Source: a virus. From it: a stretch of DNA of 64,000 nt. Below the pieces are notes generated by a model. The model was not told the DNA's origin. It saw only the letters and a program-made list of their open reading frames with translations, and searched no databases. Numbering within the stretch: the stretch's first letter is position 1; the number at the start of each line of letters is the position of its first letter. This document shows, piece after piece, positions 1-11,500 of the stretch. The position numbers were made by a program, and so were the translations under genes. The DNA lies in UHGV virus genome UHGV-0149956, one strand, 5' to 3'.

Positions 1-377
1 CAAAGGTTTACCCAACGTTAAAATTACCTGATTTACGCGGTGAGTTTATCCGTGGCTGGGATGATGGGCGAGGGATTGACTCTGGTCGCTCTATTTTAAG
101 CGAGCAAGGATATGCAACGGAGGATCATGCTCACGGATTACCGTCAAAATCAACCGTAGCAACTGACCGCTCAATTAATTTCTACTTTGACGAGGCATGG
201 GCTACTAGTGGTAATACGGGAGTTATCAGATGGGGGAACACAAGCGATGCAGGATTGCCAGCCCCTAATTATGGAACTTTTAAAACATATAAACAGTCCG
301 TAGCTAATTTAGGTACTGCTGGCTTAGAAACCCGCCCTCGTAATATTGCATTTAATTATATTGTGAGGGCGGATTAA
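1..377 (+). CDS. Tail-fibre C-terminal cassette, 5' truncated by window edge, opposite orientation to the main array
   Basis: Frame 3 translates to KVYPTLKLPDLRGEFIRGWDDGRGIDSGR...ETRPRNIAFNYIVRAD, stop TAA 375-377; shares the conserved N-proximal and C-terminal blocks of the minus-strand cassettes. Confidence 0.7.
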   Translation, partial: KVYPTLKLPDLRGEFIRGWDDGRGIDSGRSILSEQGYATEDHAHGLPSKSTVATDRSINFYFDEAWATSGNTGVIRWGNTSDAGLPAPNYGTFKTYKQSVANLGTAGLETRPRNIAFNYIVRAD

Positions 378-382
378 TTATA

Positions 383-994
383 TCAACTGGCTGTAGAAAG
401 TTGTTTTTCAGGCCAGTTGAGATCTGGTGCCGTGGTTAAATCCATCGCGTTCAGCTCGTCTATATAATCTAGCACGGAGTTAAGCTGCGTGGTTTCTGCC
501 TGCGTCAACTTCCGTCCAGCCCGTAATTTCAACTGAATCAGACTAATGGAATCCATCGCAGTATCAATCAATGACTGACGTTTTGTTTCTGCTGCCTCTA
601 CAGCTGCACTATGTTGAGCCTCAGTATCAACCACCCATTTCTCTCCATCCCATTTGTCGTATGGTGTTAGCGGGGCGATAGTGGTTGTATTTTCCGGATA
701 GTCACCCAACACCGTGATTTCTTCGGGATTCCCAGTGTCAATGCTATAGACAGTTTCGCCACGATGATCTGGCACATACTCCCATGAACTTAAATCCTCT
801 GAACGGAGAATCGCATAACCTGCTTTATGTGAGCCTGGAGCATCCAAACAAGAATTTGCCGGAATACCAACGCCAACAGCAAGATATTCAGTTGATGCAG
901 AAATATATTCCCGATTACCACCATCATAGTTATAAACGATAATGTTTCCTGCCTGTATGGCTATAAGTTCGCTATTTAATATCGCATTATCCAT
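383..994 (-). CDS. U: Tail fibre assembly chaperone (Tfa / U-like)
   Basis: 203-aa ORF immediately after the last fibre cassette; start overlaps the cassette stop by 1 nt (TAATG); composition typical of Tfa family. Confidence 0.65.
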   Translation of the reverse strand: MDNAILNSELIAIQAGNIIVYNYDGGNREYISASTEYLAVGVGIPANSCLDAPGSHKAGYAILRSEDLSSWEYVPDHRGETVYSIDTGNPEEITVLGDYPENTTTIAPLTPYDKWDGEKWVVDTEAQHSAAVEAAETKRQSLIDTAMDSISLIQLKLRAGRKLTQAETTQLNSVLDYIDELNAMDLTTAPDLNWPEKQLSTAS

Positions 995-1452
995 TATGCT
1001 GCTCTCACAATATAATTGAAGGCAATGTTACGTGGGCGGGTTTCATTCCCCCCAGATAACTCCGTTCTGTATTGACTGGTAAATTTACCATTAATCGCTC
1101 CTTGCCGGACGGCGTTATCTGTCGACAACAGACTATCCCCCCCTCTGTCATTTGGCACCAATACCGTGTTATCCCACGCGTCCCATGACCGAATATTATG
1201 ATAATGACTTCCTGTTAACCACCCCTGTATGCTTAAGATGACCCTTCCCGCATCCACACCTCGCCCATCATCCCAACCACGGATAAACTCACCGCGTAAA
1301 TCCGGTAATTTATTGGTGGGGTAGGCCTTTGCCAGTTTGGGATACATTTCAGAAGAAAATGCTGCACCATTGCATTTTAGCCAGCCCGTTGGTGGTGTTT
1401 CTAAGGGCCACGGAACGGGCACACCAACAGGCAGTGCAGAGCCTTCCCCCAA
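994..1452 (-). CDS. Tail-fibre C-terminal cassette 5 (receptor-binding tip module)
   Basis: Conserved ~70-aa block GEGSALPVGVPVPWP...LRGEFIRGWDDGRG, variable middle, conserved end RPRNIAFNYIVRAA; begins at TTG inside a crossover-like site. Confidence 0.6.
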   Translation of the reverse strand: MGEGSALPVGVPVPWPLETPPTGWLKCNGAAFSSEMYPKLAKAYPTNKLPDLRGEFIRGWDDGRGVDAGRVILSIQGWLTGSHYHNIRSWDAWDNTVLVPNDRGGDSLLSTDNAVRQGAINGKFTSQYRTELSGGNETRPRNIAFNYIVRAA

Positions 1453-1469
1453 ACCAACGTTTTTATGTG
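1444..1469 (-). other. Crossover-like site 5
   Basis: TTCCCCCAAACC-AA-CGTTTTTATGTG. Confidence 0.5.
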
Positions 1470-1966
1470 GCCCTTACAATGTAATTAAAAGCAACGTTGC
1501 GGGGGCGCATTGATATCCATGCCCCGGTAAAATTATCCTCTGCCGTCCTTTGAGTGCCTGTTATGGAGTTATCTGATGATGCTGGAACATAATCGCTATT
1601 ATCTCCTGCTTTAGGATTAGCAGGGTTTCCAACAGTTATAACAGAATCAGCAGTAGCATAAGCGATACCTACTTTGACATTAGTAGTCAGATCGACACCG
1701 TAATAATCCTGCAAAGCTGTACGAATAAATGTTGCAGTCTGACCACTTAGCAATGAACGCCCTGTATCAATCCCTCTCGAATCATCCCAACCACGGATAA
1801 ACTCACCGCGTAAATCAGGTAATTTTAACGTTGGGTAAACCTTTGCCAGATTTGGGTACTTTTCAGAAGAAAATGCTGCTCCGTTACATTTCAGCCACCC
1901 CGTTGGTGGTGTGGCGGAGGGCCATGGAACAGGTACACCAACGGGCAGCGCCGAGCCTTCCCCTAA
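1463..1966 (-). CDS. Tail-fibre C-terminal cassette 4 (in-frame module without start codon)
   Basis: Frame is open from the crossover-like site to stop at 1463; the codon corresponding to the TTG of other cassettes is TTA here, so the ORF track only shows 1463-1753. Confidence 0.55.
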   Translation of the reverse strand, partial: LGEGSALPVGVPVPWPSATPPTGWLKCNGAAFSSEKYPNLAKVYPTLKLPDLRGEFIRGWDDSRGIDTGRSLLSGQTATFIRTALQDYYGVDLTTNVKVGIAYATADSVITVGNPANPKAGDNSDYVPASSDNSITGTQRTAEDNFTGAWISMRPRNVAFNYIVRAT

Positions 1967-1983
1967 ACCAACGTTTTTATGCC
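1958..1983 (-). other. Crossover-like site 4
   Basis: TTCCCCTAAACC-AA-CGTTTTTATGCC. Confidence 0.5.
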
Positions 1984-2438
1984 GCCCTTACGATATAATT
2001 AAAGGCAATATTACGAGGACGGTTTTCATTAGCTGTTGGCACGACACGAGAGGCGTCGAATCCAAGGTCATCGGTTTTGCCTATATCAGTTGTGTTATTC
2101 GGCATTCTCGCAGATCGTGTTCCTGCATCATAAAAAGCCCCTCTGATTGCATCAAAAGACATGCCAATCCCGCCATCTGCGAACCCCTCAATATTTCTTA
2201 TTGCATCCCCCTGTGAAGATAATAATTGTCGCCCGGCATCCACACCACGTCCGTCATCCCAGCCACGAATAAATTCACCGCGTAAATCCGGCAATTTATT
2301 AGTAGGGTAAGCCTTTGCCAGATTTGGGTACTTTTCAGAAGAAAATGCTGCTCCGTTACATTTCAGCCACCCCGTTGGCGGAGTGGCTGAGGGCCACGGA
2401 ACAGGTACGCCAACAGGCAATGCTGAGCCTTCCCCCAA
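1977..2438 (-). CDS. Tail-fibre C-terminal cassette 3
   Basis: Same conserved N block and C-terminal RPRNIAFNYIVRAA with distinct variable core. Confidence 0.6.
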   Translation of the reverse strand: MGEGSALPVGVPVPWPSATPPTGWLKCNGAAFSSEKYPNLAKAYPTNKLPDLRGEFIRGWDDGRGVDAGRQLLSSQGDAIRNIEGFADGGIGMSFDAIRGAFYDAGTRSARMPNNTTDIGKTDDLGFDASRVVPTANENRPRNIAFNYIVRAA

Positions 2439-2455
2439 ACCAACGTTTTCATGCC
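2430..2455 (-). other. Crossover-like site 3
   Basis: TTCCCCCAAACC-AA-CGTTTTCATGCC. Confidence 0.5.
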
Positions 2456-2877
2456 GCCCTTACGATATAATTAAACGCAATGTTACGAGGACGAATGGTT
2501 ACATAATTAACCCCATCACCTCGTGAAGGCCCTGCAAATGAAAAACGGGAAAATCCTGGTTGGTTAGAAACAATTTGGTCATAGTTATTGATTGAATGAC
2601 CAGACCCAATGTCGAAATTACCTCCGTAATGAGAAAAACTTGTACCATCCTGCCCTGAAAGCAGGGTACGTCCCGCATCAATCCCGCGCCCATCATCCCA
2701 GCCACGGATAAATTCACCGCGTAAATCCGGTAATTTATTGGTGGGGTAGGCTTTTGCCAGTTTGGGATACATTTCAGAAGAAAATGCTGCACCATTGCAT
2801 TTTAGCCAGCCCGTTGGTGGTGTTTCTAAGGGCCACGGAACGGGCACACCAACAGGCAGTGCAGAGCCTTCCCCCAA
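2449..2877 (-). CDS. Tail-fibre C-terminal cassette 2
   Basis: Same conserved blocks, distinct variable core. Confidence 0.6.
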   Translation of the reverse strand: MGEGSALPVGVPVPWPLETPPTGWLKCNGAAFSSEMYPKLAKAYPTNKLPDLRGEFIRGWDDGRGIDAGRTLLSGQDGTSFSHYGGNFDIGSGHSINNYDQIVSNQPGFSRFSFAGPSRGDGVNYVTIRPRNIAFNYIVRAA

Positions 2878-2894
2878 ACCAACGTTTTTATGCC
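2869..2894 (-). other. Crossover-like site 2
   Basis: TTCCCCCAAACC-AA-CGTTTTTATGCC. Confidence 0.5.
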
Positions 2895-3355
2895 GCCCTT
2901 ACGATGTAATTAAATGCAATATTACGGGGGCGGGTTTCAGATGCTGTACGAACTGAGCGAGAGGCGTCGAATGTCCAGTTATAAGAGCCATAACCCTCAA
3001 TAATTTCCGTTTCCTTTAGGCCTGTAGATAATACTTGACCATGTTGACTAAATGGCCCTGAACTAAGTACATCTCTAAAAAGCTGAGTACGCCCGAAAGA
3101 ACCAACAATATTCTGAATTGCATCATTCTGTGCAGATAATAAATTACGGCCAGAGTCAATCCCCCGCCCGTCATCCCAGCCGCGAATAAATTCGCCCCGT
3201 AGATCCGGCAATTTATTAGTAGGGTAAACCTTTGCCAGATTTGGGTACTTTTCAGAAGAAAATGCTGCACCATTGCATTTCAGCCACCCCGTTGGCGGTG
3301 TGGCTGAGGGCCATGGAACAGGTACACCAACGGGCAGTGCCGAGCCTTCCCCCAA
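2888..3355 (-). CDS. Tail-fibre C-terminal cassette 1
   Basis: Same conserved blocks, distinct variable core; lies 10 nt after the stop of the main fibre gene. Confidence 0.6.
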   Translation of the reverse strand: MGEGSALPVGVPVPWPSATPPTGWLKCNGAAFSSEKYPNLAKVYPTNKLPDLRGEFIRGWDDGRGIDSGRNLLSAQNDAIQNIVGSFGRTQLFRDVLSSGPFSQHGQVLSTGLKETEIIEGYGSYNWTFDASRSVRTASETRPRNIAFNYIVRAA

Positions 3356-3372
3356 ACCAACGTTTTTATGCC
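3347..3372 (-). other. Crossover-like site 1
   Basis: TTCCCCCAAACC-AA-CGTTTTTATGCC, direct repeat of site 0 left half and core; spans stop of S and start of cassette 1. Confidence 0.5.
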
Positions 3373-5390
3373 GCCCTTACGATGTAATTAAATGCAACGT
3401 TGCGAGGGCGAGTTTCTGTACCTACATTTCCACTAATTTCACCATAACGTTTAACACTACGAGAGCTAATAGCTCGTAGTGAGGAAGGCACCTTATGACC
3501 GGGTTCGTCCGTTTTAACTATTCCCCCGTCACCGTATGTAGCTAGTATTCCTGGATTTACGCCTTCCCGTGCACTTCCTGCGGCGAGTCCGTCCCCTGTC
3601 CATAATTCCATATAGTGTGCATGGTCCAAAATTGTGTGTGGCTGCCAATTAAGCAAAGCGCGGCCAGCATCCACCCCGCGCCCATCATCCCAGCCACGGA
3701 TAAATTCACCGCGTAAATCAGGTAATTTTAACGTTGGGTAAACCTTTGCCAGATTTGGGTACTTTTCAGAAGAAAATGCTGCACCATTGCATTTCAGCCA
3801 CCCCGTTGGCGGTGTGGCTGAGGGCCATGGAATAGGTACACCAACGGGCAGCGCCGAGCCTTCCCCTAAACCAAGGTAATCAAGAACGCTCTGAATACTG
3901 GTCTTACCAAGAATGGCGCGTCCAACACTTGTCAATGCAGTTAACGCGGCACGATCAACACCTGTGAAATAAGGGAGTTTATCTGCTGCTGTAGCTAGTG
4001 CCGCTAGAGCAGTGAGCGTAGCGTCTGCCGCTTGCTTTCCATTAGCCAAATCATATGCAGCCTTGACAGCTTTCGGTGTGGCGGCCAGCACTTCAGACGT
4101 GCTGTTAGTGGCACTACTGAGCTGAGTGATGCCTTTCGCTGTCAATGAAGCTGTTGGCACACCAGTGATCTGATTCCAGGGATGTGTATGACTGGATGGT
4201 GCCTTTCCGGCTGCTAGATCGTATGCAGCTTTAACCGCTTTTGGAGTTGCAGCTAATGTTTCAGAAGTGCTGTTGGTGTCGCTACTGAGCTGAACTATCC
4301 CTTTTTGTGTCGTGGTTGCATCCTGGGCTGTATACTTCCCGTTAGCCAAATCATATGCAGCCTTGACAGCTTTCGGTGTGGCGGCCAGCACTTCGGACGT
4401 ACTGTTAGTGGCACTACTGAGCTGAGTGATGCCTTTCGCTGTCAATGAAGCTGTTGGCACACCAGTGATCTGATTCCAGGGATGTGTATGACTGGATGGT
4501 GCCTTTCCGGCTGCTAGATCGTATGCAGCTTTAACCGCTTTTGGAGTTGCAGCTAATGTTTCAGAAGTGCTGTTGGTGTCGCTACTGAGCTGAACTATCC
4601 CTTTTTGTGTCGTGGTTGCATCCTGGGCTGTATACTTCCCGTTAGCCAAATCATATGCAGCCTTGACAGCTTTCGGTGTGGCGGCCAGCACTTCGGACGT
4701 ACTGTTAGTGGCACTACTGAGCTGAACTAATCCCTTTTGCGTTGTGCTTGCATCCTGCGCCGTATATTTGCTTTTCGCCAGATCGTAGGCTTTTTTAACT
4801 GCCAGCGAACTCGCAGCAACATCACTTCTGGTACTGGTTACAGAGTCTGAAATATCAATGCCGATCGTGCGGTTGATACGCTCGGATGTATCAATCATCT
4901 CTTGAGTAATGGTAGATACGCCAGCAGGGATATTCACCGTACAAACCAGCAGTTCCCCATCACCTAACTGATATGAATCGGTATAGGTTCTGGCAACAAA
5001 TTCAGCTGCATGAATATGTGACGCGGTATTCACCTGATAGGTATCTTCTCCAAGAAGGTATCTTCCCTTCAGCACAATTGCATATTTCTTGCCTGCGTTA
5101 AGTGCAAGAGAGATATCCTTACGATGCTGAATAGTTACCTGGTAGAATTCACCAATATCCACTGACGCCGCGCCAGCGGTTTTATCTCCATCCACTGAGG
5201 TGATTAACAGGTTCATTCCACCGCCAGGCTTAGGCAAGAAACCAGCATAAAATCCCGGGTCAACAATTCCCCTGAATTTTCGGTTTAGAGCGGCTGACAG
5301 ATATGGTTCGTGGTATTGCACATCAGCCACCAGAGCCAACGACTCGGGTGATGGGTAAGTAACCGATGTAACAACTGTAACGTCATTCAT
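3366..5390 (-). CDS. S: Tail fibre protein (S-like) with ~30-aa repeats and expressed C-terminal tip
   Basis: ATG at 5390 with AAGGA 5-8 nt upstream; internal repeats TAQDA-TTQKG-VQLSS-TNSTSE-LAATPKAVKAAYDLA; C-terminal 150 aa homologous to the downstream cassettes. Confidence 0.8.
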   Translation of the reverse strand: MNDVTVVTSVTYPSPESLALVADVQYHEPYLSAALNRKFRGIVDPGFYAGFLPKPGGGMNLLITSVDGDKTAGAASVDIGEFYQVTIQHRKDISLALNAGKKYAIVLKGRYLLGEDTYQVNTASHIHAAEFVARTYTDSYQLGDGELLVCTVNIPAGVSTITQEMIDTSERINRTIGIDISDSVTSTRSDVAASSLAVKKAYDLAKSKYTAQDASTTQKGLVQLSSATNSTSEVLAATPKAVKAAYDLANGKYTAQDATTTQKGIVQLSSDTNSTSETLAATPKAVKAAYDLAAGKAPSSHTHPWNQITGVPTASLTAKGITQLSSATNSTSEVLAATPKAVKAAYDLANGKYTAQDATTTQKGIVQLSSDTNSTSETLAATPKAVKAAYDLAAGKAPSSHTHPWNQITGVPTASLTAKGITQLSSATNSTSEVLAATPKAVKAAYDLANGKQAADATLTALAALATAADKLPYFTGVDRAALTALTSVGRAILGKTSIQSVLDYLGLGEGSALPVGVPIPWPSATPPTGWLKCNGAAFSSEKYPNLAKVYPTLKLPDLRGEFIRGWDDGRGVDAGRALLNWQPHTILDHAHYMELWTGDGLAAGSAREGVNPGILATYGDGGIVKTDEPGHKVPSSLRAISSRSVKRYGEISGNVGTETRPRNVAFNYIVRAA
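3861..3886 (-). other. Crossover-like site 0 (Din/invertase-family-like 26-mer) at constant/variable junction of S
   Basis: TTCCCCTAAACC-AA-GGTAATCAAGAA; resembles hix/gix/cix sites as recalled (12-bp half sites flanking a 2-bp AA core). Confidence 0.55.
4021..4725. repeat. Near-perfect 300-bp tandem repeat (2.3 copies) inside the fibre gene
   Basis: Sequence lines starting at 4321 and 4621 are identical, and lines 4141/4441, 4201/4501, 4261/4561 are identical; period exactly 300 bp. Confidence 0.9.
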
Positions 5391-5401
5391 CAAGCATATC
5401 C

Positions 5402-5836
5402 TTATGCTGTAGTCGAGTTTATGGCCATAACTGCGGTATATGTTTTGCCCACATACAGCGAGTCTTCTTGGACACAAATAATGGCGATTGGCTTATTCTC
5501 GTTATCCAGAACAACCAGAGTGTTGAATGGGTAGTTTTTCCCTTCCTGCAACTGACTTTGATCAAGGTCCATTCGGACAGTAATTATCCCGCCTGAGTAG
5601 GTTGGGACGAGGTTGATGGTGCAAAATTGACTGGTCAGTTCTGCCAGATCGAAAGCCTTTGGCAGTTCTCCAATCTCATAAGTGCCATCTCCTTTCTTAG
5701 TAACCAGTGAACTGGTACCGAAAACGGCCTTGCTGATTAAAAATCGAGAGCCTTTGTTAATGGACGATTCAGCGCGCCGCTGATAGTAATAGTCCAACAA
5801 CTGACTCTTATAGAGGTTTGTTGAGACGTCAGACAT
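5402..5836 (-). CDS. Tail fibre-associated structural protein (R-like)
   Basis: 144-aa ORF ending 12 nt upstream of S start; operon position. Confidence 0.45.
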   Translation of the reverse strand: MSDVSTNLYKSQLLDYYYQRRAESSINKGSRFLISKAVFGTSSLVTKKGDGTYEIGELPKAFDLAELTSQFCTINLVPTYSGGIITVRMDLDQSQLQEGKNYPFNTLVVLDNENKPIAIICVQEDSLYVGKTYTAVMAINSTTA

Positions 5837-5914
5837 GATTTTCCCTAATCAATGTTGTGAAGCCTCATTGTAAGATAAGTAACTTGTCACCCCGCCCTGC
5901 GGACGGGGTGATTG

Positions 5915-6754
5915 TCACGCATCGCTATCCAACAGCAAATCATCTGCGCGGGTGCGATCAAACGTAGGCGTTGCTTTCACAATAGTGCCGCCCGGCGTTG
6001 CAGTGATCGGGGCGTTAATCGACGTAACTTCAGTAAGCGAAGTTGTATCCGAAGTTTCAAACCAGCAGAATGCTTTTTCGGTATCAGAAATCTCATTCAA
6101 AGTGATCATGTCGGCCTGTTCATTTACAACAACCGACAAATAGAGCGTAAGCCCATCAAACACTATATGCAGTGGCAGTAGAGGCTTTACGAACTGATTA
6201 AACTTTCTGAGAATTTCTTCTGTAATTGCGGACTGATCTATCGTTCCAGTAATACCCATTGTCCGGGCCAAGTCGTTTATGGGAATACTGATCATTCCTC
6301 TGGAAGTCAGAAACATCTCGCCGAATGTGCCGCCGGTGGTTTCCAGTGTGCTTTCTGGAATCAGGACCGTGCCATAGGGATGACGTTCAAAGTCCACCGG
6401 AGCATATATGGGATCCCATAAAACCGATATACCGTTAAATTCGCGATAAATTGTCTGGTTTATAGGGCGTTCAGTACCCTTAAAATGGATCTCATCAAAC
6501 CGCTGTTGTAACAACATCGGAACGGAAGATGAATTCGACGTTCTGATAGTAAAAAACTGGCCAAGTTCATTTGTCCTAGTCTCCAGATCCTCCTTGCTCA
6601 TGGAGAAAATAGACTTCCGGTTGGTAATTCGCTCCAACCATGGGTCAACAAAGGTGTCCATCATTGACTGAACCAAATCAGCCAATGATTTATAAAGTAA
6701 TGACTTTTGCTTAGCTGATGTAAGCCGGTTATTAAACCAGGAACGCTGCATCAC
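5915..6754 (-). CDS. Virion structural protein, probable baseplate component
   Basis: 279-aa ORF, ATGA overlap with upstream gene; position in baseplate/fibre operon. Confidence 0.4.
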   Translation of the reverse strand: MMQRSWFNNRLTSAKQKSLLYKSLADLVQSMMDTFVDPWLERITNRKSIFSMSKEDLETRTNELGQFFTIRTSNSSSVPMLLQQRFDEIHFKGTERPINQTIYREFNGISVLWDPIYAPVDFERHPYGTVLIPESTLETTGGTFGEMFLTSRGMISIPINDLARTMGITGTIDQSAITEEILRKFNQFVKPLLPLHIVFDGLTLYLSVVVNEQADMITLNEISDTEKAFCWFETSDTTSLTEVTSINAPITATPGGTIVKATPTFDRTRADDLLLDSDA

Positions 6755-8184
6755 TCCTCCTCATACGAAATATTAAAGGTGGAGTTTTCTGTATCCAGAT
6801 AAACGAAATCGTAAAAGCCGTTGGACTCATTCCACTCGACAAATTCCAGATAAAAGTCGCGGAAATAACCCAGCGTTTCGATAAATGCCCAAACGTCTTT
6901 TTTCTTGATTAGGATGTACTTGCCGACACGGTTCGGATCAAAGAAAGTTGAGTCACGCCCAAATTTTGTTTCCAGTGCCGACTTCAGCTCATCAGTCACG
7001 TTCTCAATGGTCAGGCTTGCCGATATCCGCCCAGTGATGGTGATCTTAAAGGGTAGTTTTCTGACCTCTTTATACGAGAATTTCTTGTTCAACTCATTCG
7101 GCACCTTCTTAAAGGCGGCCAGGATCATTTCTTCAAGCTCTGACTGGCTTTTGTTTGGATGCCATCCTGAAATAAATATCTTATTGATATTCCGAACATT
7201 ATAAGCACCATCTAATTTCTCTTGCTGGCCTTCGCCCCATGCCTTTACCCAGGACAGTCCCGGGATGTTACGCACCAGAAAATACGTATAGTCCCCGCCC
7301 CATACGACCTGATCATCATAGGCAAGGTAATATTGTGCACGGTTACGTGTGATCTCCGTTGTTTCAGCATCGGTACCTGCGGTTATAGGTGTCGTTGTCT
7401 TAACTGAAATCAAATTAGCTAAATTAGCCGCAGAATCAACAGGAGTCAGGTTTTGGCCAGCAACCAGGGTTATATCGCCGTTGGTGCACCATACCTTAAG
7501 CGTAATTGTCGAGCCTTCTGGCGGTATTTGCCCAATTAGCCCATCGCCGAATCGGACACCCAACTGTTCGGATGGTTTATAAAACTCAACGTAGACCTGG
7601 CTTTTACTACCAGCTAACCGGAACATTGTGCTGGAAGACCACTGCGTGGTCTTACCATCGGTCGTCACGAATACTTCCAGCTTATAGCAGACAGCAGTGA
7701 GAGCCTTTGATAACACGACTTCCAGAAATTCTTTGGCAGCCGTAACGGTATATGTCACCTCCTGGATTTCCAACTGTGCCACTTCTACCGTACCGGTGCC
7801 GTCAACCAACCTGCATACATCCATAGTCATGTAAGGGTACTGGTCGTCAGATATTAAAGGCATGTTTTTGGGAATTACCGCTGGGGCATCTTCACTTGTG
7901 GCGGTGATCTCAATCATCCCCGATGACGGTGTTGGCTTGGTACCAACGTAACTATTCGTTTCTGCCGCTGCCAGGATAGAGGAACGCCGCGTCGCGGTCG
8001 ATATAAAGCCTTCAGCCAGCGCCGCATCGGCATACTGAAAGCACCTGTAGACAATCTGGGTAATAAACAATGTCAGCATCGAGACAAATTGAGAGCCGAC
8101 AAACTTCGACCAGAATGAATCTTTCTCGACAAGCTCTTCAAACTCTGCACGAATACTGTCTTTAGTCGGTGTTGTTTTACTCAT
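6751..8184 (-). CDS. Virion structural protein, probable baseplate wedge
   Basis: 477-aa ORF translationally coupled on both sides. Confidence 0.4.
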   Translation of the reverse strand: MSKTTPTKDSIRAEFEELVEKDSFWSKFVGSQFVSMLTLFITQIVYRCFQYADAALAEGFISTATRRSSILAAAETNSYVGTKPTPSSGMIEITATSEDAPAVIPKNMPLISDDQYPYMTMDVCRLVDGTGTVEVAQLEIQEVTYTVTAAKEFLEVVLSKALTAVCYKLEVFVTTDGKTTQWSSSTMFRLAGSKSQVYVEFYKPSEQLGVRFGDGLIGQIPPEGSTITLKVWCTNGDITLVAGQNLTPVDSAANLANLISVKTTTPITAGTDAETTEITRNRAQYYLAYDDQVVWGGDYTYFLVRNIPGLSWVKAWGEGQQEKLDGAYNVRNINKIFISGWHPNKSQSELEEMILAAFKKVPNELNKKFSYKEVRKLPFKITITGRISASLTIENVTDELKSALETKFGRDSTFFDPNRVGKYILIKKKDVWAFIETLGYFRDFYLEFVEWNESNGFYDFVYLDTENSTFNISYEEE

Positions 8185-8540
8185 AGCACCACGTCCTGTG
8201 TGATAGTTATATCCCTGATACGAATGGATATTTTCAACTTATCAAAAGCATCTCCCTCGGCTACTGACAAGCCAGAAATCGGTATGTCAGGTAAATCTAC
8301 CGTCAGTTTTTGCAACAGCATTGCCTCAACCGCAATTTGAACATGCGACAAGTTGGTCGGTTCGTGTTTAAACAGCGGTAAAACATTGCCCCATGACGGA
8401 TCTCCGTATACCTCACCCTGATAAGTGTTTAGCCACTCATATAAACGAGCGCCCCAGGCCTCCTCCTGGGACTCATACGTTTTTACGCCGGATAACTCCA
8501 GCGTCAGCAAAGGATCAATTTCGTTATTGTTGGCCATCAA
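8181..8540 (-). CDS. Small baseplate-associated protein (W/gp25-like position)
   Basis: 119-aa ORF coupled between Sit-like gene and wedge gene. Confidence 0.35.
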   Translation of the reverse strand: MMANNNEIDPLLTLELSGVKTYESQEEAWGARLYEWLNTYQGEVYGDPSWGNVLPLFKHEPTNLSHVQIAVEAMLLQKLTVDLPDIPISGLSVAEGDAFDKLKISIRIRDITITQDVVL

Positions 8541-11500
8541 TCAACTCTCGCGTAGTCATTCATCAACGGATCATCAATTGACAGTGGTACCGTGCGCATA
8601 ACGCCCGGCTGAGGCGTGCTGACCTTTACGACAGTTCCCTGGCCTTTCGCCGAGTCTTTGGTGTGCTCTTCAATCCTGGCAAGCAATGAGGTCATCTGCG
8701 CAAACAGCCGCTTCGTTTCACCATCAAGTGAAACGGTATTATCAGCCAACTGCATTGTCGGCTTGGCACCGGAACCGCCAAGGTCACTAATAACCTGCCC
8801 GTCTATCTGCATACGACCGGTTGGTTGCTGCAAATCGTTGGCGGCAGTCGTCACCTGGGACGTGGAGGCTGGTTCAGGCGCATTATTTTTCCGCATCCCC
8901 GGCGAGTTGCGGAGTTTATCGAATAGTCCATCAATCCCCATTTGTGCGCCGAGATGGTCAAAGTAACTTGAGTTGTTGGCCACCGGACGCGCCTCTTCAA
9001 CTGGCATCGGAGTATCAACATACACATTGCCAGCTGCTGTTGCGGTCCCCTTCTCTCGTGCACGTTCTTCTAGCGTTCCCTGAACGACTTCCCGACGCAT
9101 CCCCCGGCCATTCATGAATTTGTTGACCAGATCGTTAACGCCAACAGCATTGCCGATTTTGTCGACCAGACCGCCTTTCTCAAACGGGCTATCACCAGGG
9201 GTAAACGCCAGGCCAGTATACTGATCGATAACAGCGTTATCAGGCAGTGGTCCCCTCACTCCATATTGCGCCCCACCCTGTGCTCCTGCTCCAGGTGTAT
9301 AGATTTCACCACCTAAATAGCGAGCACGATGAGTATTGACCTTGATCGCGTACTCACGGTTTTCTTTCGATAAGTCACCGGTGCCTTTTTTCCACTTATT
9401 AATAGTGCCAAACCCAGCATTATATGCAGTGATGGCCTCGTTTAAGTCTCCATTGGCTTGCTTAAGATACTTGCTCATGAGAAGAGCCGCAGCTTCTGCC
9501 GATTTCACAGGATCAAACGATTCACCTTCAGCTAAGCCAGTCTCTTCACGAGCAATCCCCGTGAACTGAAACATCCCCAGAGCACCGGTTTGGGATTTTG
9601 CATACGGATTACCACCAGATTCAGTTGCAGCAATCGCGTAAAGAGTGCCTTCTGGAAGACCGTATTTATTCTCTAGTTCGGCAAAATACGGAGCCAACTT
9701 ATCGAGATTTGCCTTACCTTCAGCGCCAAGACTTCCGACTTTTACATCTAAGTTGCCATTGTTGTAAGTATCCGCAGCTTTCTGAATGTCATTCCTGGTG
9801 CCAGTGGTATTAAGCGACGATGATGACGAGCTATTTTGACCAATAGCTTTATCAATTTTCTGCAACGCGCTATTGCCCGTTTCTACGGCATTTGCATTGA
9901 TAATCTGATTGGCAGTTTGTTTAACTGTTTTATTGCTATCTTTCGCTGTGTCCAGTGCCGCATTTATCACGCGGGTAGCAATATTACTCTGTTTGGCATC
10001 GGATTCAGTTTTAGAATCAGACGTCTCCTGGTGGCTATTAACCGGAGCTTTTAACTCCGGAGTGATTTCTTTCGCATTAGCCTCGCCGATCGGATTGGGT
10101 ATTTTTGATACAATCATTGCCGCAGGGGTATTTTTAACGGCATCAACCGCTGCATCTAATGCTTTACCAGGTAAATTTTTAACCCCATCCCAAATATTAC
10201 CAGCCGCCTCTTTAATGTGTTTCCCTGGGTTCTTAATGAAATCAATTGCACTATCAATTGCATCACTGAAAACCTGTTTCAGGTTATCAACAGTAAAGAA
10301 GTCTTTGATGGCATCCAGCTTTTCAAGCAGCTTATTAGATGTATCGCTAAACCATGCTGAAACAGCATCACCAATCTTTGCTGTGTAATCTTCGAACTTG
10401 GTAGAAATGGTGTCGCCAAGGTTAGAAATATATGTTTCTAAGTTGGTAATCCCACTATCAATGGCCTGGGCAATACTTTCCGTCGAAAATGATTGCAACA
10501 TATTGCCGATATCCTCAAATCCAAGTGATTTGAGAACCTCACCAATGGCGCTGCTAATACCAGATACCAGTCCCCCCATATCAAGAACATTGGCTAACGT
10601 ATAAGCGGCTTTTTGCTGGAATGATGGCTCTTGTCCTGATTTAAGCCCAAACGCTCGACGTTGCGCTTCTGTATCATTCCAACCGGTTACCGCATCATAA
10701 ATACCTCCAGCCACTGTGCCGACTAAGGGAATTGCGCGTAACGCCCCTTTACCAACTGCCTTTAATCCAAATTTACCTGCTGCCCGGGCAGCCAAATCTC
10801 CACCTTCATGGGCGATAGTCTTCTTGCCACCACCGCGTAGCATTCCTACAAGTTTCTTTGCCCCCAGAGCGCCAAAAGCGAGTGCTCCAGCTTTTTTCAG
10901 CATGCCACGCCCCATTAACAACGACGCGACGCCACCGGCCCCCTTCCCTAACAGGCTAAATAGTTTGGACAGCAAGCCGCCCTTCTTTTTCCCGGTGTTT
11001 TTGGCTATCTGATCAAGGGCGCTGAGAATCTTGTCATTGCCCTCTTTAATTTCGCTGGTCTGCTCCTGAAGTTCCTGAACCGTCCGTTTTTGGGTGTTAA
11101 CCTGAACGACATCGGCACTATTTTGCGATTTACGCCTAAAAAAACCTTTTCTACGGCTGTTATCGTCATTGCCACGAATCACATCGGCAATAGACTTTCT
11201 GGCGCCATTAAGCGATCCACCAACTTCTTTTGATATCCCGCCAAGCTCCTTCCCTGCTGCCCACAATGGACCAGCAACGGCATAACCTAACGCATCGACG
11301 GCACGAGTCTCTGAAGGGTTACCTATGCCTTCAGCTACTTTTGACAGTTTTTTTAATAAACCTGATTCAGCATTTAGACGCTCATCATCCTCTTTGCGCC
11401 TGGCCTTTTCAGCACGTTCAGCACGGGCATCTTCCGCTGCGGCCTTACTCCCTGACTTTCCAATAAAACGACCACGCGCATCGCGTTGGTTTTGGCTTTT

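Follow-up and report, generated by a model that had tools for sequence, protein, structure and literature searches.

Six directly repeated mix sites as the probable S-proximal arm of a Min-type DNA-inversion region in a P1-like phage-plasmid

The stretch of UHGV virus genome UHGV-0149956 that we analysed (64 kb in full, hereafter the window) very probably carries, near its left end, the S-proximal arm of a Min-type multiple DNA-inversion region, as known from plasmid p15B, in a P1-like phage-plasmid. Judged by their sequence, the six 26-bp repeats that punctuate this region are mix crossover sites of the Min system. Their uniformly direct orientation (6/6 on the + strand), which an earlier note on this DNA had found puzzling for serine invertase sites, is the normal appearance of one arm of a two-armed Min system and no anomaly. 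The window comes from an E. coli P1-like phage-plasmid, of which it covers the tail-fibre end; its backbone is shared at 98.6% identity with hundreds of P1-like plasmids of E. coli, and the constant part of its tail-fibre gene (Sc), gene R and the late promoter LPs are 97–100% P1-like.

The sequence TTCCCCNAAACCAA has exactly six exact matches in the window, all on the + strand (1444, 1958, 2430, 2869, 3347, and 3861), compared with a mean of 0.10 matches in shuffled sequence, where 0/100 shuffles reached six. The claim of six directly repeated 26-bp sites at cassette boundaries is thus borne out, and re-reading all six gave the same 26-mers as the earlier note. The 26-mer at 3861, placed at the constant/variable junction of S, reads TTCCCCTAAACC-AA-GGTAATCAAGAA, and those at 2869 and 3347 read TTCCCCCAAACC-AA-CGTTTTTATGCC; the remaining three are variants, with T at position 7 (1958), the half CGTTTTCATGCC (2430), or the ending ...ATGTG (1444). 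Every one of the six sites is a cassette start with an intact downstream reading frame (6/6; 144–169 aa). Read on the coding (−) strand, the core TT supplies the second and third positions of a GTT or CTT codon, after which GLGEGSALPVG is encoded, and the sites join, in frame, the constant 5′ part of the tail-fibre gene to exchangeable 3′ parts. Each 26-mer lies inside a conserved block of ~260 bp, made up of ~45 bp of the preceding cassette's 3′ end and ~210 bp of the next cassette's 5′ end. Because of this embedding, repetition alone is no proof of function, and the functional claim is made because the sites are identical to experimentally defined mix sites.

Alignment to published cix, mix, gix, and hix sites, which the earlier note had suggested as a check, separates these families clearly. 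The window sites share 26/26 positions with published p15B mix sites at 1444 and 1958 and 25/26 at the other four, compared with only 11–20/26 for hix, gix, cix, and pix, and 11 of the 12 window half-sites are published mix halves. The proposed likeness to Din-family crossover sites is therefore real and closer than was supposed; the hixL sequence quoted for that proposal agrees with the published site list, which includes mix and hixL (Table 3 of PMC3241671). In each of the six, two 12-bp halves flank an AA core (12-2-12), in line with the pattern TTC---AAAC- -A -GTTT---GAA. The half that opens each cassette (h-half) fits TTC...AAAC fully, and the halves that end a cassette (t-half) or Sc fit partly, as in published mix sites.

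The sites (all + strand) can be read in order from S towards the left edge. At the Sc/Sv junction of S (3861..3886; 25/26 to mixQ′′R′, both halves published), the flank half GGTAATCAAGAA comes from Sc and the half TTCCCCTAAACC from the expressed cassette A. The site at 3347..3372 joins the 3′ end of cassette A, with its TAA stop inside the site, to the start of cassette B (25/26, both halves published), and the site at 2869..2894 (25/26) joins the end of B to the start of C. At 2430..2455 (25/26), cassette C ends in the variant half CGTTTTCATGCC with a TGA stop and cassette D starts; the same variant half also follows cassette C in two relatives, L004 and L008. The last two sites match published sites completely: 1958..1983, from the end of D to the start of E (26/26 to mixMr′′N′/O′′P′/P′′Q′), and 1444..1469, from the end of E (half CGTTTTTATGTG) to the start of F (26/26 to mixN′′O′).

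These sites divide a tail-fibre operon and a series of alternative tips, all on the − strand except cassette G. LPs (5867..5885) matches the annotated P1 element at 19/19 positions and precedes the P1-like gene R (5402..5836), the upstream partner of S in the operon. Sc (3875..5390) is 97% identical to P1/P7 Sc, carries Phage_fiber_2 repeats and a 300-bp tandem repeat (4035–4725), and probably starts at the ATG at 5390, as indicated by alignment of MNDVTVV... with P1 S. Cassette A (3366..3872), with a tail collar domain and a variable C-terminus, is the S tip now fused to Sc and is, because of this fusion, taken to be the expressed one. LPs would then drive R and S together with whichever cassette adjoins Sc by fusion. 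Five promoterless but intact S-tip cassettes begin at the sites other than the Sc junction. Cassette B (2888..3358) is silent, intact, promoterless, and co-oriented with S; L003 and L008 have 100% identical copies of it, in inverted orientation, on their invertase side. The silent cassettes C (2449..2880), D (1977..2441), and E (1463..1969) also have intact frames; C recurs in relatives, D is fused to Sc in L003, and E appears only in its distal part in the open reading frame list because it lacks an early TTG. Cassette F (994..1455), which is fused to Sc in pD72-mcr1 (L004), forms the S-side arm of a pivot piece, and its stop overlaps the start of a U-like tail-fibre assembly chaperone gene at the pivot centre (383..994; Caudo_TAP, 3e-30). 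This U gene is the sole one in the region, and all relatives have it annotated as a tail fibre assembly protein. The 3′ part of cassette G, on the + strand (1..377; frame 3, ending ...RPRNIAFNYIVRAD*), makes up the invertase-side arm of the pivot. A scan of window positions 1–6000 for sigma-70 promoters and terminators gave no more hits than shuffled sequence (8 against 9.9 and 5 against 5.7, respectively) and is uninformative on independent expression of U.

The direct orientation of the sites follows from this architecture. Because the 3′ end of a cassette always meets the 5′ end of its neighbour at a site, the cassettes on the S side of the pivot must be co-oriented with S, and the same rule (t-half, AA, h-half) requires the modules between the pivot and the invertase gene to be inverted. 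The pivot lies at the left edge of the window, with F and U on the − strand and G on the + strand. No inverted mix site occurs within the 64-kb window, and tblastn found no invertase gene there. Relatives that are 99.5–100% identical over window positions 1–1460/1507 carry the cassette G site 88–113 bp left of the position equivalent to window position 1 (distances taken from L003 and CP088508.1), followed by further inverted cassettes and then a serine invertase gene. The first inverted site is therefore predicted to lie ~90–115 bp beyond the left edge (position 1), with the min gene beyond it, as in six relatives. Of the two explanations that had been offered for the direct array, inverted partners left of the window are supported by cassette G and the relatives, and gene conversion or deletion-type switching is unneeded and fits the breakpoints poorly. 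The earlier note had also suggested a search of flanking DNA for a cin/min-like gene and an enhancer. The same intact 190-aa invertase adjoins the region in 6/6 relatives whose gene table lists the flank. It has Resolvase and HTH_7 domains, is identical to Cin at 138/190 positions (~73%), and has Gin invertase as its best solved-structure (PDB) match (4e-92). The part of the relatives' min that corresponds to the annotated P1 enhancer matches it at 58/72 positions and is a putative enhancer. From these relatives, we infer that the window's replicon also holds min and inverted sites and that inversion is active. No record with the window's arrangement was found among phages, plasmids, and E. 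coli genomes, nor any place in them covering at least 80% of window 1–6000.

Comparison of relatives suggests how the region is rearranged. In six relatives the order is min, an outer site, inverted cassettes, the U pivot, co-oriented cassettes, the Sc junction site, and Sc; the flank half of the outer site is CGTTTTAGTCTT, the outer half of published mixMl′′L′. The pivot is the single point at which site orientation changes in 6/6 relatives, which have 6–10 sites each; L005 and L010, with homopolymer-type errors in their sites, were used for orientation only. Copies of window cassettes A–G that are 99.6–100% identical occur in other orders and orientations in L003, L004, L008, and L009, and each h-half or t-half variant stays linked to its cassette across isomers. 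Window 285–1457 matches pD72-mcr1, in which F is fused to Sc and 100% identity ends at the core (1456–1457); window 1767–2443 matches L003, in which identity likewise stops at the core; and window 2671–3877 is inverted in L003. The traceable isomer breakpoints (1457, 2443, and 3877) thus lie at or within 3 nt of the AA core. This comparative evidence indicates that inversions occur with exchange at the core.

We propose a model in which LPs would drive R and S, with S consisting of Sc, ending in a half-site, plus one exchangeable tip cassette. An ordinary cassette would be a module of h-half, body, and t-half, in which the cassette's opening GLGEG comes from the h-half (TTCCCCNAAACC on the + strand) and its stop codon from the t-half (CGTTTTTATGCC and variants). 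The single pivot piece (h-F-U/G-h) would have h-halves at both ends. Every functional site would then be t-AA-h, such that modules from Sc to the pivot are co-oriented with S and give direct sites, and modules from the pivot to the invertase are necessarily inverted. The serine invertase Min, presumably encoded just past the far end of the region with a Fis-type enhancer in the 5′ end of its own gene, would cut at the central AA and exchange only oppositely oriented sites. Serial inversions would permute the modules until any cassette can reach Sc; from the window's state, G would require one inversion and B–F two. A search allowing inversions only reached 2(N−1)! states, or 240 for N = 6, and six co-oriented sites are found in one sixth of the N = 7 isomers.

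Three other readings of the array can be weighed against this Min-type arrangement. The invertase or another enzyme might recombine direct sites and irreversibly remove the cassettes that lie between Sc and one further downstream, which would thereby be expressed. Such deletion-type switching would suit the range of 6 to 10 sites in plasmids whose backbones are ~98.6% identical, and the clean t-AA-h junctions, the only kind in shorter arrays. However, it would steadily erode the repertoire, yet all six cassettes are intact here and up to ten persist in relatives, whose shuffled orders and orientations require inversion. Direct sites are also strongly disfavoured by Din invertases acting with Fis and an enhancer. 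Deletions besides inversions have been reported for Gin, according to the title of Plasterk 1983, and even so we consider deletion-type switching highly improbable. Just as little weight is given to homologous recombination or gene conversion between the ~210-bp conserved 5′ blocks, with the 26-mers as a mere part of the homology. The blocks are highly similar and form a mosaic of two variant types among cassettes (PLETPP...EMYPKLAKAYPTNKL vs PSATPP...EKYPNLAKVYPTLKL), suggesting some exchange over evolutionary time, but between isomers each cassette keeps its entire 5′ block, and identity breaks off at the AA core or no more than 3 nt from it (1457, 2443, and 3877). Homology cannot place the junction at the core because Sc has no homology to cassette 3′ ends upstream of it, and the 26-mers equal experimentally defined mix sites.

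A frozen relic, in which the invertase of the window's replicon is missing or truncated and the array is fixed, is somewhat less improbable than either of these, though still unlikely. Some P1-like plasmids are described as having truncated cin/min genes and disrupted C/M regions, so activity cannot be taken for granted in this replicon; min is absent from the window, and one relative has an ISApl1-mcr-1 insertion in the region. Against a relic stand the intact cassettes, U, Sc, and LPs, together with the intact invertase beside the region in the relatives. An R64-type shufflon (Rci/sfx) was also considered and rejected: the sites are dix-type and the relatives' recombinase is a serine resolvase/invertase, not a tyrosine recombinase.

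The Min system is already known, including in P1-like plasmids, and is not a new system here. That of p15B (E. coli 15T−; GenBank X62121) was reportedly described by Sandmeier, Iida, Arber, and colleagues in 1990–1992, with a reported 240 isomers, the number that the inversion-only model gives for six sites. A 5-kb invertible region of a P1/P7-like plasmid has been reported to be 99% identical to the p15B min region. The window resembles p15B in its site sequences, in their placement at the Sc/Sv junction and cassette starts, in the flank halves GGTAATCAAGAA beside Sc and (in relatives) CGTTTTAGTCTT beside the invertase, and in its tail-fibre target and P1-like IncY-type backbone. It differs in site number, with six in p15B, six plus at least one predicted off-window here, and ten in the relative holding all window cassettes, and in the t-half variant CGTTTTCATGCC, which is not in the published list. 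P1 Cin/cix, Mu Gin/gix, Hin/hix, and Pin/pix share 26-bp sites of 12-2-12 layout centred on AA (GA in gix) and a serine invertase whose gene contains an enhancer. In P1, too, the C-terminal part of S is exchanged at a fixed Sc junction, and Sc, R, and the late promoter are 97–100% identical. In contrast, P1 has two sites, two tips, and two U genes, compared with one U for many tips here; its cix sites are 15–20/26 identical to the window sites; and cin points into the invertible region, whereas the relatives' invertase gene points away. The R64 shufflon similarly swaps the C-terminal ends of one protein by multiple inversion to give many isomers, but with a tyrosine recombinase and asymmetric sfx sites.

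As a discovery, the explanation of a puzzling direct array of invertase sites as the expected view of one Min arm is minor. Through the Min switch, P1-like phage-plasmids can display many alternative tail-fibre tips, with a change of host range as the result. We raise, with considerable doubt, the possibility that the region has expanded past the six-site p15B prototype (at least seven sites here, ten in the relative with all cassettes) with one shared U, modules perhaps quickly gained and lost, and direct sites perhaps not fully inert. If so, ten sites would allow ~725,000 isomers, and rare invertase-catalysed exchange between direct sites would be one possible route of module gain and loss; the range of 6 to 10 sites among such similar backbones might reflect fast turnover of whole modules. 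The modular rule (t-half, AA, h-half, single pivot) offers a simple parsing of the region and a count of its tip repertoire. Such plasmids are common in E. coli, and some carry mcr-1 or ESBL genes; their assemblies and annotations can be expected to show arbitrary isomers, seemingly "truncated" tail genes, and even circularisation artefacts in this region. CP088508.1, which was left out of the counts, has 16 sites and contains both the Sc-junction site and the pivot piece twice, with one pivot copy at the record's end, a duplication that is probably a circularisation overlap of two isomers.

The six repeated sites belong to the already known Min multiple-inversion tail-fibre switch, a system driven by the serine invertase Min. 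Min-like invertases are on record in P1-like plasmids (PMC6906374), and in a P7-like mcr-1 plasmid a putative invertible segment of 5 kb was reported to match the min region of p15B at 99% identity (PMC5786510). Only the size is mildly new: the p15B Min region has six sites, whereas this replicon has at least seven and a close relative ten, with a single U gene.

A search with the pattern TTCCCCNAAACCAA returned six matches in the 64-kb window, all on the + strand (1444, 1958, 2430, 2869, 3347 and 3861), against a mean of 0.10 in shuffled sequence. These are the six direct 26-bp sites described in the earlier note, whose 26-mers read back identically from the window. On the coding (-) strand, a reading frame starts with ...GLGEGSALPVGVPVPWP at every site. 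At the rightmost, 3861, the constant part (Sc) of the 674-aa tail-fibre gene S meets the gene's present C-terminal part, and the other five each precede an intact, promoterless cassette of 144-169 aa. Since conserved sequence of about 260 bp encloses the sites, their repetition alone is no proof of function. A lone match resembling a cassette-start half-site at 50793-50818 (-), with two mismatches (TTCCTCTAAACC CA ATTCGACAACCA), is remote from the tail-fibre region and has neither the AA core nor a cassette context; we set it down to chance.

Din-family sites, including the six p15B mix sites (Sandmeier 1990, X62121), are tabulated in Table 3 of PMC3241671. Site 1444 is identical to mixN''O' and site 1958 to mixMr''N'/O''P'/P''Q' (26/26 each), sites 2430, 2869, 3347 and 3861 match published mix sites at 25/26, and published mix halves account for 11 of the 12 window half-sites. 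The likeness to Din-family invertase sites described in the earlier note is thus borne out by alignment; with 25-26/26 identity to mix and only 11-20/26 to hix, gix, cix and pix, the window sites are themselves mix sites, beyond mere resemblance to invertase targets.

The plan of the region was compared in six relatives (p1506-2, pD72-mcr1, p779-3, pPEC145_2, pA338_p0 and pHeN100_02). In all six, a gene for a 190-aa serine invertase is followed by an outer site, whose flank half, CGTTTTAGTCTT, is the outer half of published mixMl''L'. Beyond it lie cassettes directed away from the invertase, then a piece with the sole U gene between two oppositely oriented cassettes, then cassettes co-oriented with S, the Sc junction site and Sc. 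Each plasmid has 6-10 real sites, whose orientation switches exactly once, at the U-bearing piece. A site consists of a t-half (cassette 3' end, with stop codon), the AA core and an h-half (the next cassette's 5' end, GLGEG). Ordinary modules run h...t and the U-bearing pivot h...h, so a module's orientation is set by its side of the pivot. The window reads Sc, modules A-E and pivot, the latter with cassette F and U (Caudo_TAP assembly chaperone by Pfam, 383-994) on the - strand and the end of a further cassette, G (1-377), on the + strand, which yields six co-oriented sites. The pivot's second site is expected 88-113 bp to the left of window position 1, corresponding to the G-side pivot site of p1506-2 and CP088508.1, both 99.5-100% identical across window 1-1460/1507. 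Inverted partners left of the window, the first explanation offered for the direct orientation, are therefore backed by the relatives' architecture and site positions.

Comparison with the relatives gives evidence that inversion takes place at the core. Cassettes 99.6-100% identical to A-G occur there in different orders and orientations, and pPEC145_2 holds all seven within a ten-site region. In pD72-mcr1, F is joined to Sc, and window 285-1457 finds a 100% match that stops at the core (1456-1457); p1506-2 has D joined to Sc and matches window 1767-2443 up to the core at 2442-2443, and in it stretches 2671-3877 and 1-1507 stand inverted. Half-site variants move with their own cassettes (C or T at h-half position 7, ...ATGTG after E, ...TCATGCC after C). 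The whole conserved 210-bp 5' block stays with its cassette among the relatives' isomers, which speaks against switching by homologous recombination. The cassette 5' blocks (about 210 bp, window 994-3872) are of two types, PLETPP...EMYPKLAKAYPTNKL and PSATPP...EKYPNLAKVYPTLKL, and the mosaic intermediates in B and D suggest that gene conversion may occasionally have occurred among cassettes over evolutionary time. CP088508.1 has 16 mix sites, a pair of Sc-junction sites and the pivot piece in duplicate, one copy at the record end; its end and start are probably a circularisation overlap holding two isomers of one region, which, if so, would point indirectly to a mixed isomer population.

The relatives' invertase, WP_001165547.1 (UniRef Q05517_ECOLX, "DNA-invertase"), has Resolvase and HTH_7 domains and shares 138/190 residues with P1 Cin; its top solved-structure matches are the "DNA-invertase" chains 4m6f and 3uj3 (4e-92), which we take to be Mu Gin. 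Over the stretch equivalent to the annotated P1 enhancer, 58 of 72 positions agree. No invertase gene lies within the 64-kb window; judging from the relatives, we infer that this replicon carries an intact min gene. In Min-type relatives the gene points out of the invertible region, and its 5' end and the enhancer equivalent lie no more than about 100 bp from the outer site (compared at 8356-8436 of the p1506-2 locus), whereas P1 cin (861-1435 in the P1 locus) reads into the C segment and its 3' end overlaps cixL.

In a breadth-first search permitting only inversions between oppositely oriented t-AA-h sites, exactly 2(N-1)! arrangements were reachable (240 for N=6, 1440 for N=7 and 80,640 for N=9), 240 being the number of isomers known for p15B. 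Malformed junctions never arose. At N=7, six co-oriented sites are seen in one sixth of the isomers, and from the window state G reaches expression by one inversion and B-F by two. There is a single U gene for all tips, translationally coupled to cassette F; if the pivot were flipped to bring G next to Sc, U would run antisense to S transcription. A promoter scan gave no informative signal on U expression.

Phages P1 and P7 share 96-97% identity with the window in Sc, gene R and gene 16. The 19-nt P1 late promoter LPs occurs without any change at 5885-5867, and the following 24.6 kb matches hundreds of E. coli P1-like plasmids at 98.6% identity. Pfam assigns tail-fibre repeats and a tail collar domain to S, and a collar domain to the cassettes. 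Sc also holds a 300-bp tandem repeat (4035-4725; 2.3 copies, 98% match) within the Phage_fiber_2 repeat region; since annotated S lengths in relatives (1512, 1683, 2226 and 2382 bp) differ partly in steps of about 300 bp, fibre-shaft length may vary with repeat copy number. In pD72-mcr1 (NZ_CP035313.1), the invertible region carries an ISApl1-mcr-1 unit (7163-10857 in the pD72-mcr1 locus, at about window 285/286) within the 3' part of the G-equivalent cassette, with flanks 100% identical to the window on both sides.
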